Origin: a virus | IMG/VR virus record: IMGVR_UViG_3300028883_000033 | Location: 1-64,000 of that record | Length of the DNA: 64,000 nucleotides | Reading direction: 5' to 3' (one strand) | Shown: in pieces, positions 17,354 to 21,437 of the stretch | How positions within the stretch are numbered: the first letter of the stretch is position 1 | Layout: each line of letters begins with the position of its first letter | Notes under the pieces: model-generated | Databases searched by the model: none | Told to the model about the DNA's origin: nothing | The model's input: the letters and a program-made list of their open reading frames with translations, nothing else | Program-made: the position numbers and the translations under genes

Positions 17354-17800
17354 CTACTCTTTATCAGTACCCATAATCTGTTTAAGGATCTCATTTCTGT
17401 CAGCTACTACAAGATTGTTGTTAACCGTTTTCGGACCTGTCGCTTTACGATCATTCAACATTTTGTCTTTGAACTGCTTTAGGCCTGCTTTTTCTCGAGC
17501 AGCGTTAAGAGCTGTGTTTAAATACTGAACAGCGACCTCTTGATTTCGAGCTCGATATTTTGGTTCAACAGCTTCGGTGTCCATTGCTTGCTGTTCATAC
17601 GCATCCATAGCAGCGTCATATACTTCTTGAAACTGCTCTTCGATTTCCTTGTCCTTGTTGTCATATTCATCGGCGACAACCATTTCCGTGCTTCTAGCAG
17701 GCGGGGCAGGAATTAACGTCGAACCTGGTTCAAGGTCCAATACTTCTTCCATTGGATGTTCAATAATTTTGAAGTCTTCGGGTAAATCTCGATCACTCAT
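17354..17800 (-). CDS. terS: Terminase small subunit (gp16-like)
   Basis: Start re-called to MSDRDLPED (AGGTGG SD); helical core and C-terminal 'TVNNNLVVADRNEILK' typical of these TerS; upstream of terL. Confidence 0.75.
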   Translation of the reverse strand: MSDRDLPEDFKIIEHPMEEVLDLEPGSTLIPAPPARSTEMVVADEYDNKDKEIEEQFQEVYDAAMDAYEQQAMDTEAVEPKYRARNQEVAVQYLNTALNAAREKAGLKQFKDKMLNDRKATGPKTVNNNLVVADRNEILKQIMGTDKE

Positions 17801-17828
17801 ATTCCACCTTTTATGCGGGGTTTTATCA

Positions 17829-17836
17829 TATTTATT
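17829..17836 (-). promoter_or_regulatory. Late promoter AATAAATA for terS
   Basis: Motif 28 nt upstream of the re-called start. Confidence 0.55.
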
Positions 17837-17866
17837 ACTTTTTAGGGCCGAGATCCTAAATAGGTG

Positions 17867-17895
17867 TTGCCGTATATCCGAATTTCCGGTAATAT
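17867..17895 (+). promoter_or_regulatory. Sigma70-type promoter TTGCCG-N17-TAATAT inside an imperfect inverted repeat
   Basis: Direct reading; upstream of the two + strand secreted-protein genes. Confidence 0.55.
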
Positions 17896-17942
17896 GGGCA
17901 CCGTTAATTCGCAACTAAGATTAAATCTTAAAGGACATGATT

Positions 17943-18395
17943 ATGAAAAAAATTATCGCAATCGCCGCTCTGGCACTGGTATCTACTACAGCATCCGCAT
18001 GGGCATGGAACGACAGTTCTTCCTGGTATGGCGACAACACTGCTAATGGGGCAGGAACAGGATATGGTTCCGCTGATGGAGAAGCGACGTTCAGCATGAA
18101 CTTCACTGGTAAATCAAAATTCCGTAGCGATGTATACGGTAATGGATACGGGTACAATTACAATCGTGGGTATGGTTACTACGAAAACTATGGTGACGGT
18201 AACTGGAGTAACGACGGTGCATTTGACGGTGCTGGCAATGGTAATGCAGATGGCGAAGCATCTTTCAGCATGAACTTCACTGGCAAAGGCCGCACGTCAG
18301 GTGATAGTCGTTTTACTGGCCAGACTTATAATAGCGGGCTGGGCAACTATGCACCAGACTACAGCTACCCATACCCATACAAGTACAGCCACTAA
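17943..18395 (+). CDS. Secreted Gly/Tyr/Asn-rich protein resembling sulfur globule envelope proteins (SgpA/SgpB-like)
   Basis: Sec signal MKKIIAIAALALVSTTASA|W; duplicated ADGEA(T/S)FSMNFTGK; GNGYGYNYNRGYGY; Y/P-rich tail; AAGGA SD favours ATG 17943. Confidence 0.6.
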   Translation: MKKIIAIAALALVSTTASAWAWNDSSSWYGDNTANGAGTGYGSADGEATFSMNFTGKSKFRSDVYGNGYGYNYNRGYGYYENYGDGNWSNDGAFDGAGNGNADGEASFSMNFTGKGRTSGDSRFTGQTYNSGLGNYAPDYSYPYPYKYSH

Positions 18396-18426: not shown

Positions 18427-18612
18427 ATGAAAAAACTACTTGCTATCGCCATGATCGTTATGTCAACTGCCGCATTCGCGTCATCTGATCGTGACGCTAT
18501 TGTAGCCGAACTCAACGCCAAATCTGCTGAAGGTTCTATCTTCGGTTGGTATGATAACTGCATTGGAACCATCTATAGTTCTGATGGCAGCGAATACAAA
18601 TACGATATTTGA
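18427..18612 (+). CDS. Small secreted hypothetical protein
   Basis: AGGAG SD; signal peptide MKKLLAIAMIVMSTAAFA. Confidence 0.75.
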   Translation: MKKLLAIAMIVMSTAAFASSDRDAIVAELNAKSAEGSIFGWYDNCIGTIYSSDGSEYKYDI

Positions 18613-18621
18613 TAACAGATA

Positions 18622-19065
18622 TTATCTAAACAGTTGGTTTTCTGTGACAAGACGAAAGTTGTAACCGTGCTTGTCGCAGAAAGCCTTCGCTGCTATCCAT
18701 TTCGCTTTATTGACTTCCCACTGCAACGCTTCATATAGTTGTTGCTTCTTTCGCTTTCCGCGGCGGGTTGGTGATTTTGTTTGATTCTCGGGTTTAACTT
18801 CCCATATCTCCTCTACAATTTCACCGTGTTTATTTCGATACTTAATCCAATAGTCTGGATAGTACCGATGGATTCTGCCGGTGGTAGGTTTGATGTATGG
18901 GATAGCTATCTCTTCGCTACTCCACTCTAGGATGTTTGGATTACCATCTAGGAACTGGTGCGCTTTTAGTTCCCATGATGACATATAACGAATCTTTGTT
19001 GGATCGCCTTTATATTTGCTTGGGTTTCTTGGGGTAAAGTATCCTTGTCTATATGAACGCGCCAT
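18622..19065 (-). CDS. Head completion protein (T4 gp4-like, TnsA-like nuclease fold)
   Basis: F.P.NP.KY.GD..I.Y.SSWE, WSSEE..IPY, RYYPD, EVKP, NKAKW.AA. Confidence 0.92.
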   Translation of the reverse strand: MARSYRQGYFTPRNPSKYKGDPTKIRYMSSWELKAHQFLDGNPNILEWSSEEIAIPYIKPTTGRIHRYYPDYWIKYRNKHGEIVEEIWEVKPENQTKSPTRRGKRKKQQLYEALQWEVNKAKWIAAKAFCDKHGYNFRLVTENQLFR

Positions 19066-20732
19066 TATGAAAAGAAGGAACCGCCGAACGACTTAGCTTT
19101 GCTGAACGCATTACTGACAGTAGTTCCTAAACCTCCAATAGCCTTCTGTGCCTGATTCATTGCACCGGTTACCCCTGCCGTGAAATTACCGTTAGTAAGA
19201 GAACCTGTTGCTCCATCCACTGCACCAAATACAGCGTTTCGTGCACTACTCAGATCACCTGCTACGCCTTGCGCAAATGTTCCAATCTGTCCTGTTACAC
19301 CATCAATAATTCCATTTGCCGCATCAGTTACGCCTCCAATGACGTTACCGAACGCGTCGGTAACTGCCCCAGCCGCTGCTGAAATGCTGCCCAGGAAGCT
19401 GCTGGAAGGAGCACTGTCTTCCTGTGATTGAGCTGATGGAGTCGCACTAGACTTCTCTGAAGAGTCTTCTGCGTATACTGGGTCGATCGGACGCATGCCA
19501 TGTTTCCACGTCAGTTCTAGTAGACGACCATTATCCAATTCCAGATCATAATCATGCTCAACATACAAGCCATCATATACAAACTCAAATTCAAAATCAG
19601 TTCCTTCACCGGTTTCCATTTGTGATAGATCGCTTGGCGTAAAGGTAGTAATACGTGGATTGTAAAAATGATATGTATTCATTTTATTTCCATAATCGAA
19701 CACATGATGTAACCGCAGCGTTTGGATGATACTGGTAGTTTTACCAACAAGTGGTCCCAACGACGCACTATGACCAGCTGTATCAGGAGAGAAGCTACTA
19801 AACGTCGCTGCCGATGCTGGACGGCCGAAATCCATACCTGCTTGCTCGTACGAACCAGATTGTGGATCATTAGTACGAATGTTGGCAATCGGACTCATAG
19901 CACGCATATATGCAGTATAAAAACCATGAGCCATGTTTTTATTATCATCGTAGAACGACATTGTTATTGGTGGATACTCCACCCGCTTTGGAACACGTGT
20001 CCTGAAGTTGTACATATTGACTTCTTCATATTCGACTTCGAATCGAGGACGGGTACTCGTTTTAACCACGAAAGCCATTTGACTTGCCATATCAGACCAA
20101 TCCTGGTATTCAGGAGCCAATATGACTTCAACGATGAACATGAACTTAAATTTGGGAGCATATGCAATCAAGTCACGTGCGTATGGTGTTGCACCACATA
20201 ATTCCCTACTCGGCTTCGTTGGGGAACTACCACCAAAGATATTACGGCCTAATGTTTCTAGGTTTTGCAGATCCTGAAACACGCCAGGAATGTCCGATAG
20301 CTCAAAGTTTCCCTGCTTAACTCTCTCGAAGATACTCTTTGCTTGGCCGTACGCTCTGTTAGCCACTTCTGGATTTAGATCGCCGACGGCACTCATCGCA
20401 TCACCAAGACCGACAGCATCTATAACAGCATTTGCGCCTTCATTAACAGCACCGACAGCTGTTCCTGCAATTTTGCCTAGCGCAGAATTATATGTGTCAT
20501 TTCCTTCACGACCAGGAACTGCACTTTCGCCTACTCGAATGGAATCGGATACGCTCGAGAGCACACGAAGGCCCTCACCAACTTTACCAAATCCAATATC
20601 ATTAAGAATTTCCAAATCCCCAACCTTGAGGATACTATCCAGAAAATTCTTCTGATGCGCTGATTGGTTAGCTGCTGCTTGTCCTTGTATAGGGCAGGAC
20701 TTTACCGTAAATTGTCTAGGATCGTTAGCCAT
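19065..20732 (-). CDS. Tail-tube-related baseplate/tube junction protein with extensions
   Basis: PKFKFMF...RP.F...NMYN...Y.PITMSFYDD tube-fold motifs; directly downstream of the tube gene; start re-called to MANDPRQ. Confidence 0.65.
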   Translation of the reverse strand: MANDPRQFTVKSCPIQGQAAANQSAHQKNFLDSILKVGDLEILNDIGFGKVGEGLRVLSSVSDSIRVGESAVPGREGNDTYNSALGKIAGTAVGAVNEGANAVIDAVGLGDAMSAVGDLNPEVANRAYGQAKSIFERVKQGNFELSDIPGVFQDLQNLETLGRNIFGGSSPTKPSRELCGATPYARDLIAYAPKFKFMFIVEVILAPEYQDWSDMASQMAFVVKTSTRPRFEVEYEEVNMYNFRTRVPKRVEYPPITMSFYDDNKNMAHGFYTAYMRAMSPIANIRTNDPQSGSYEQAGMDFGRPASAATFSSFSPDTAGHSASLGPLVGKTTSIIQTLRLHHVFDYGNKMNTYHFYNPRITTFTPSDLSQMETGEGTDFEFEFVYDGLYVEHDYDLELDNGRLLELTWKHGMRPIDPVYAEDSSEKSSATPSAQSQEDSAPSSSFLGSISAAAGAVTDAFGNVIGGVTDAANGIIDGVTGQIGTFAQGVAGDLSSARNAVFGAVDGATGSLTNGNFTAGVTGAMNQAQKAIGGLGTTVSNAFSKAKSFGGSFFS

Positions 20733-20737
20733 GAGGA

Positions 20738-20745
20738 TATTTATG
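20738..20745 (-). promoter_or_regulatory. Late promoter CATAAATA, 5 nt before the ATG at 20732
   Basis: Direct motif match. Confidence 0.6.
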
Positions 20746-20762
20746 GGTGGGTAACCAGGCAT

Positions 20763-20840: not shown

Positions 20841-21437
20841 TTAGCCAGAAATCTTACCTGCACCACCTGTTGCAACACCTTCGCCAGCGCTGTAACCGTT
20901 AGTCTGGTCTTGGCGAGCGTGGTCGTAACGGATCGTACAAGTGATTTGTACCTGATTGCTATCACTGTAGTCCAAATCGGTGTAATCCACTGCGGAGAAG
21001 AAGCAGCCTTCAACAGTCCACTTCTCGATAACCTGCTCTTTACCATCCATAAGGTCTAGGTAGGTAACGAATTTGTACAGCGAACCCTCTTCGCCTTTAC
21101 CCAACCACGGACCTTCAGCACCAATCAACCACTGTTGCTTCTGCATCTGTTCTTGAATAACACGAGTTGCAGTACCAGTAACATCATCTTCGAAAGTGAC
21201 TGTCATTGGTTCAAACAAATGCTTACCAGCAACAAAAGCGCGTGAGTTGTAACGATGTAGTTCAACTTCTTCGAATGAGATCGAAGGACGTGTGATGTTT
21301 ACTGCTTGTAGGCTTAGTGGCTGCGAATCAGCACCGCCGCCGAGGTTAGCGAATGTGACACGCCACAGGTTTTTCAGCTTAGGCTGAAGGATACCCGTGC
21401 CGATTCCTGGAATGCCAATGTCGTTAATTGTAGCCAT
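20841..21437 (-). CDS. Tail tube protein (gp19-like)
   Basis: QPKLKNLWRVTF, RP...F.EV, AGK..FEPMTVTFEDD, LDY, IRYD; follows the sheath gene. Confidence 0.9.
   Translation of the reverse strand: MATINDIGIPGIGTGILQPKLKNLWRVTFANLGGGADSQPLSLQAVNITRPSISFEEVELHRYNSRAFVAGKHLFEPMTVTFEDDVTGTATRVIQEQMQKQQWLIGAEGPWLGKGEEGSLYKFVTYLDLMDGKEQVIEKWTVEGCFFSAVDYTDLDYSDSNQVQITCTIRYDHARQDQTNGYSAGEGVATGGAGKISG

Follow-up and report, generated by a model that had tools for sequence, protein, structure and literature searches.

The window analyzed here is a 64-kb stretch of DNA, which corresponds to the first 64 kb of a linear IMG/VR virus record of 147,644 bp with an estimated completeness of 43%. Within a region where all the other genes lie on the minus strand, it carries two consecutive plus-strand genes, one encoding a sulfur globule protein (SGP, Pfam family PF17228) and the other a small protein of 61 aa. 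The genes and features found at this locus are the following:

17354..17914, minus strand: small-terminase-like gene (phrog_445, E = 1.6e-9), kept in related phages; left bound of the insertion slot
17868..17899, plus strand: conserved non-coding element, about 30 nt long, with TATATYCGAATTYCCGG as its core, also found upstream of the SGP gene on contigs L093-L095 and L103 (L093:5264-5295)
17931..17935, plus strand: ribosome binding site AAGGA, 7 nt ahead of ATG 17943, read from the sequence
17943..18395, plus strand: two-unit sulfur globule protein gene (PF17228), 150 aa, stop codon included
17943..17999, plus strand: Sec-type signal peptide of 19 aa that ends with ASA, recognized by eye and by comparison with aligned signal peptides of cellular SGPs
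18000..18185, plus strand: unit 1, made of an acidic G/N/D segment, the core ADGEATFSMNFTGK and a G/Y-rich linker (first Pfam stretch, 18006-18194)
18064..18113, plus strand: copy 1 of a direct DNA repeat, 50 nt
18186..18392, plus strand: unit 2, made of the core ADGEASFSMNFTGKGRT and a short Y/P tail (second Pfam stretch, 18183-18392)
18238..18287, plus strand: copy 2 of the direct DNA repeat, 50 nt, 82% identical to copy 1 and 174 nt downstream
18427..18612, plus strand: gene of the 61-aa protein, with its own signal peptide, a GGAG ribosome binding site and an FGWYDxC motif, directly following the SGP gene
18622..19065, minus strand: head-closure/TnsA-like gene (phrog_218, E = 3.8e-51; PF08722); right bound of the insertion slot

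The ORF listed by the program extends from 17937 to 18395 on the plus strand and would encode 152 aa. However, since its homologues all open with MKKIIAIAA and an AAGGA sequence is located 7 nt before the second ATG, the true start is most likely the ATG at 17943, giving a product of 150 aa. This is the start that the initial annotation had retained, and both the N-termini of the homologues and the AAGGA spacing back it. In the signal peptide, a hydrophobic core lies between a basic MKK start and an ASA site, the n-, h- and c-regions being discernible by inspection and by alignment with homologues. The mature chain opens with WAW, the first Trp codon being located at 18000, and then includes two copies of the sequence ADGEA(T/S)FSMNFTGK separated by a Gly/Tyr-rich linker. 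The tail of unit 2 is devoid of the usual Ala/Pro-rich end. The layout described in the initial annotation is therefore recovered: the signal peptide, the Trp at the start of the mature protein and the acidic G/N/D segment (from inspection and homologue alignment), the GYGYNYNRGYGY stretch as well as the Y/P-rich end can all be read in the translation, and the duplicated ADGEAxFSMNFTGK unit with its 174-nt spacing corresponds to the 50-nt direct repeat. The AlphaFold model of the phage SGP has a mean pLDDT of 41 and shows no confident fold; such a poor confidence is expected for a structural protein of low complexity.

A likeness to Sgp proteins was proposed in the initial annotation. A search with the Pfam SGP model gave the ORF of the window a score of 44.3 bits for a gathering cut-off of 26.7 (E = 3.2e-11) over two stretches, and the same two stretches were recovered by a six-frame search of the whole record. 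When applied to 14 well-known control genomes, this model had no match, while in the family of one Chromatiaceae genome it matched 59 of the 61 genomes. All 11 matches of a word-indexed search carry PF17228, an exhaustive HMMER search retrieved 27 relatives of the phage SGP, and the ESM Atlas clusters nearest to it are SGP clusters, the top one having 92 members, with Uroviricota making up 70% of the ten that are taxon-labelled. Since the phage SGP is a low-complexity protein, a separate canonical HMM was built from 12 high-scoring SGPs of the same Chromatiaceae genome family and used with a shuffle control. In the proteins of this canonical set, ASA and WWG are followed by a GDFNMNMSGGGRG core, by GYGYGY runs and by an Ala/Pro tail. 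With this model, the mature phage chain reached 25.9 bits, for a mean of -14.4 and a maximum of 2.5 among 500 shuffles; taken alone, unit 1 and unit 2 scored 16.8 and 20.8 bits, respectively, and no shuffle out of 500 equalled the real score in any of the three cases. Furthermore, the central motif of the family (an acidic Gly-rich run, then F-S/N-M-N/S-F/M-S/T-G-basic) occurs twice in the phage SGP and aligns with that of cellular and canonical members, and a non-repetitive core, GEATFSMNF(S/T)GKGRT, is common to the phage SGP and to a marine one-unit cellular subfamily. At the sequence level, the phage ORF is thus established as a true member of the SGP family, and the resemblance to Sgp proteins is borne out by a Pfam score that lies above the cut-off, survives shuffling and is accompanied by sequence-search matches that all carry the same domain.

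Known members of this family, SgpA and SgpB (CV1/CV2) of Allochromatium vinosum, share with the phage SGP a Sec signal peptide, an aromatic start of the mature protein, a Gly/Tyr-rich repetitive chain and the central motif (GDFNMNMSGGGRG in its canonical form, GEATFSMNFTGK in the phage protein, which scores above the Pfam gathering threshold). The phage SGP differs from them in that it is encoded by a phage, has two units per chain, is accompanied by a small secreted partner and lacks an Ala/Pro-rich tail; its composition also includes more Asn, Ser and Asp and far less Pro (2% compared to 13%). Its nearest cellular relatives belong to a marine "MKKIIAIAA" one-unit subfamily found in Sedimenticolaceae, Chromatiales and unclassified sulfur-oxidising Gammaproteobacteria (P0001-P0009, Milos-ODIII6 and CTD079 among others). 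The start of their signal peptide is nearly identical to that of the phage protein and their unit core is 58-64% identical over 33 aa, but these proteins are cellular, have only one unit (about 90-115 aa) and long Ala/Pro tails, and are often encoded in tandem arrays.

The tails of all the phage SGPs examined are very short. Only two residues follow the last aromatic residue in the SGP of the window and in P0012, its best full-length relative, and 3-12 in six other complete viral SGPs, whereas the median for 29 cellular relatives is 16 and the 12 canonical Chromatiaceae SGPs have 13-22. The Ala/Pro-rich C-terminal tail, which is typical of cellular SGPs though not formally defining, is absent from the SGP of the window. 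Since this tail is missing, the phage SGP may behave unlike a normal coat subunit. The two-unit form was also considered as a phage speciality, but this was ruled out by the finding of cellular two-unit SGPs at a conserved trpE/gph/rpe/argS locus: P0018 on contig L100 (L100:2614-3090) and a 192-aa protein in genome G005 (L092:7950-8528). The locus of these cellular paralogues adjoins the genes for anthranilate synthase, a HAD phosphatase and ribulose-phosphate epimerase, and argS; in the two-unit SGP of G005, each core motif contains a Cys (DMDCDW in one, DLNCDF in the other). In each of six two-unit proteins compared by eye (P0013, P0021, P0031, P0018, P0012 and the SGP of the window), the two units of the same protein are the most alike, a pattern that would fit either repeated duplication or concerted evolution.

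The 61-aa protein encoded just downstream of the SGP shows 36% identity (pairwise E = 1e-8) with an 85-aa ORF that follows the SGP gene of contig L093 (L093:5757-6014), and both carry the motif FGWYDxC(I/L)G. Pfam, PHROG, NCBIfam and the ESM Atlas gave no lead for this partner, and no relative other than the L093-type ORF was found among 5.8 billion proteins. An ORF of contig L051 was considered as a third copy of the partner and rejected, as only its signal peptide is alike and the FGWYD motif is absent.

The non-coding element located upstream of the SGP gene, with its core TATATYCGAATTYCCGG, occurs only once in the 147.6-kb record. Its copy in the window and the one of L093 form a similar hairpin, the stability of which is no better than that of shuffled sequences (z = -0.6 and -1.3); this element may be an operator or a 5′-UTR hairpin. 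Simple scans found neither a sigma-70-like site scoring at least 9 of 12 upstream of the cassette of the window nor a terminator after it, and the T4-type late promoter TATAAATA is absent upstream of the SGP gene and not enriched in the window. The L093 cassette has a near-consensus sigma-70 promoter (TTGACT-N18-TATAAT) and a strong terminator, in which a T run comes after a GC hairpin.

The surroundings of the SGP gene are those of a phage, in agreement with the initial annotation. The genes encoding the small and large terminases are located on one side and those encoding the head closure, tube, sheath, sheath stabiliser, adaptor and major head proteins on the other side, all on the minus strand, the genes of the SGP and of the 61-aa protein being the sole plus-strand genes of the region. 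The closest large terminases from cultured phages (42-52% identity) all belong to jumbo myoviruses: Xanthomonas phages XacN1 and Xoo-sp13, Stenotrophomonas phages CM1 and RAS14, Ralstonia phage RsoM2USA and Pseudomonas phage PA5oct. By sequence comparison, the record is a fragment of a jumbo myovirus genome. The gene that adjoins the head-closure gene (19065-20762, minus strand) encodes a 565-aa protein with a tail-tube-like domain (phrog_4542, residues 200-305) and is separate from the gene of the regular tube protein (198 aa, 20841-21437).

The organization of this region was compared with that of 14 related viral loci, whose large terminases are 58-82% identical to the one of the window. 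The order of the genes encoding the 565-aa protein, the head-closure protein, the small terminase and the large terminase is conserved in these loci. The matches to the head-closure and small-terminase genes are separated by only 0-85 nt in about ten of them and by 176-456 nt of other sequence in the four others, and neither the SGP nor the 61-aa partner has a match in any of the 14. Since the flanking genes are adjacent in related phages and the content of the slot varies, the SGP gene and its partner are, as deduced from these comparisons, an inverted moron-like two-gene insertion between the small-terminase and head-closure genes. The G+C content of this cassette (44.3%) matches that of the whole record (45.3%). 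In L057, the closest relative spanning the whole region, the same slot harbors an unrelated inverted ORF encoding a 135-aa protein with a signal peptide (L057:5007-5414, minus strand). The slot between the head-closure and small-terminase genes appears to be a hot spot for morons encoding secreted proteins. In several relatives (L052, L053, L064 and L065-L068), inserts about 0.5-2.4 kb long interrupt the match to the large terminase, which suggests introns, inteins or homing-endonuclease insertions; the terminase of the window is unbroken.

The SGP gene of the window is not an isolated case among phages. P0012 has two units and the same SGLGNY-PDY tail, is 47-53% identical to the SGP of the window, and is encoded on phage-like contigs (L093-L095 and L103). 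Its gene lies on the plus strand amid minus-strand genes, including a T4 gene 30.3-like gene and a PTH2 gene, and no other gene of L093 has a homologue in the 147.6-kb record. The cassette of these contigs (P0012 and P0038) resembles that of the window by its two-unit SGP, the tail of this SGP, the FGWYDxC motif of the partner, the upstream element and the inverted orientation, but differs from it by a sequence identity of only 47-53%, by its gene neighbourhood and by the promoter and terminator that the copy of the window lacks. Over a protein divergence of about 50%, both ORFs have been conserved together with their signal peptides, the two motifs and the non-coding element, which points to selection within phages rather than to a dead passenger.

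Further SGPs of the two-unit group were found on phage contigs from IMG/VR and Logan (P0010, P0016, P0020, L048, L050 and L051), as well as another two-unit protein (P0011) on L009 and one-unit SGP genes on phage contigs L047 and L049. SGPs are thus carried by several phage lineages (L093-L095 with L103, L005-L008, L009, and L047-L051 from IMG/VR), and all those that were tested exceed the PF17228 cut-off. The neighbours of these other phage SGP genes include genes for an exonuclease (phrog_107), a ribonucleotide reductase, a sigma factor and a T4 Rnl2 protein, and several of them are 25-55% identical to genes of the 147.6-kb record. On L005-L007 and L049, the SGP gene has a DsrC gene at a distance of 1-2 kb, a proximity that ties phage SGPs to the known viral genes of sulfur oxidation.

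Cellular relatives of the phage SGP belong to Chromatiaceae, Chromatiales and Sedimenticolaceae/Sedimenticola, as well as to unclassified marine Gammaproteobacteria; two small SGP contigs were assigned to Hyphomicrobiales and Halieaceae, probably through a binning error. The closest matches are not unrelated low-complexity proteins of non-sulfur bacteria, an outcome that would have spoken against the proposal of the initial annotation: the five genomes checked among those that carry the nearest cellular SGPs (G001-G005) all harbor dsrA above the cut-off and SoxY, and each of them has several SGP copies. The G+C content of the phage (45.3%) is close to that of G001, G004, G005 and the Sedimenticolaceae MAG L028 (about 47-51%), other SGP-bearing genomes being at 58-66%, although G+C is only suggestive as a host clue. 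Given the taxonomy of the SGP relatives and this rough match in G+C, the host is likely a sulfur-oxidising gammaproteobacterium of the Dsr type, with periplasmic sulfur storage. One of these genomes, G001 (GCA_038146785.1), a 2.1-Mb MAG of a sulfur oxidiser, is matched 17 times by the SGP model (for example at C1:4779-6889 and C9:54929-56086); several of these matches are in tandem arrays and a few have in-frame stops, which points to a rapid turnover of the gene family. The initial annotation had also suggested looking for dsrA, dsrC, soxYZ and tusA in the phage itself. None of dsrA, dsrC, tusA, soxY and soxZ had a match above the cut-off in the 147.6-kb record, which is about 43% complete, and a 14-bit DsrC fragment lying inside a 445-aa frame was dismissed.

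The SGPs of A. vinosum are synthesized with a Sec signal peptide and build the envelope of the periplasmic sulfur globules, and a strain devoid of SgpB and SgpC has lost sulfide and thiosulfate oxidation as well as globule formation (PMC10386293; PMC6374484). This loss indicates that the initial part of sulfur oxidation, which yields electrons, depends on the coat protein. We favor, with moderate confidence, the reading that the jumbo myovirus carries, in a moron cassette, an exported two-unit SGP that supplies globule coat protein to a sulfur-storing gammaproteobacterial host. During infection, the phage SGP would be exported to the periplasm and join the protein coat of the sulfur globules of the host, thereby replacing the supply of coat protein once the expression of host genes fails. 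The deposition and turnover of stored sulfur would then go on, and the electron flow from sulfide or thiosulfate oxidation would continue and pay for the replication of the phage. Such a logic of coat supply would resemble that of other auxiliary metabolic genes. In this scheme, we infer the export, the binding to globules, the identity of the host and the benefit to the phage.

The consistent loss of the tail in phage SGPs makes the opposite effect conceivable. A tail-less two-unit SGP could poison or cap the assembly and loosen the globule coat, so that stored sulfur would be quickly mobilised through the Dsr pathway in the course of a short infection. The very short tails of all the phage SGPs examined would fit such a role, as would the pairing, in other phages, of the SGP with DsrC, the carrier for the oxidation of stored sulfur. 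However, the present genome fragment encodes neither DsrC nor DsrA, and since cellular two-unit SGPs exist, doubling alone is no sign of a poison subunit. We therefore regard the loosening of the coat as rather unlikely.

Morons often encode secreted exclusion proteins, and the two secreted proteins of the cassette could alter the periplasm or the outer envelope of the host, for example by superinfection exclusion or receptor masking, the SGP fold having been co-opted as a sticky structural protein. Since the slot of the sister phage L057 is occupied by an unrelated secreted protein, this slot may simply gather morons that act on the envelope, and the second secreted protein of the cassette has no sulfur link. 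This explanation seems doubtful to us, as the SGP family was restricted to sulfur oxidisers in all the searches made, phage SGPs are repeatedly found near dsrC and the core motif of the family is retained in both units.

That the SGP gene plays no role in the phage, being recently captured or decaying, is improbable: sister phages do without it and no clear promoter was found in the window, but the cassette is intact in two phage lineages at about 50% protein identity, including its signal peptides, core motifs, partner and upstream element, and its G+C content matches that of the phage. Lastly, it is very improbable that the ORF encodes some other secreted protein, rich in Gly, Tyr and Asn but unrelated to SGPs, whose composition would account for the match to the SGP model, since, despite the low complexity of the sequence and the high HMMER bias terms, homology by composition alone is effectively refuted by the Pfam score, the control genomes and the shuffles of the whole chain and of either unit, and the non-repetitive GEATFSMNF(S/T)GKGRT core is shared by the phage protein with cellular SGPs.

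Provision of coat protein by the phage would, if true, extend the reach of phages to the management of the compartment in which sulfur oxidisers store sulfur and thereby buffer their energy supply, and would bear on the estimates of virus-driven sulfur and carbon flux for vents, sediments, oxygen-minimum zones and symbioses. A broader proposal, which we put forward only tentatively, is that a mobile cassette made of a tail-less doubled SGP, a Cys-containing secreted partner and a control element would let phages take over the periplasmic sulfur storage organelle. As SGPs would have been gained by several phage lineages, the control of stored sulfur, beyond the Dsr and Sox enzymes, would then be a general viral strategy. 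Short natural variants of SGPs, which have two units and no tail, could also be used as probes of the assembly of these proteins on sulfur, which is still poorly understood, and a phage SGP gene could mark the phages of sulfur-storing hosts.

Phages of sulfur oxidisers are known to carry dsrA and dsrC/tusE as well as soxC, soxD and soxYZ (Kieft et al. 2021, PMC8190135). The phage SGP is similarly a host-derived gene of sulfur oxidation and is paired with dsrC on other phage contigs, but the published genes encode enzymes or sulfur carriers whereas the SGP is a structural protein that coats an inclusion, and SGP is not in the list of PMC8190135. Two different queries gave no SGP match among 50,697 GenBank phage records, no DNA match for the SGP region was found in GenBank phages, and a full-text literature search found no paper on phage-encoded sulfur globule proteins. 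The present locus contributes (i) the two-gene SGP cassette with its partner and upstream element, (ii) its insertion in the packaging/structural module of a jumbo phage, and (iii) its recurrence in another phage. In the ESM Atlas, automatic cluster names already label viral proteins as belonging to the sulfur globule family.
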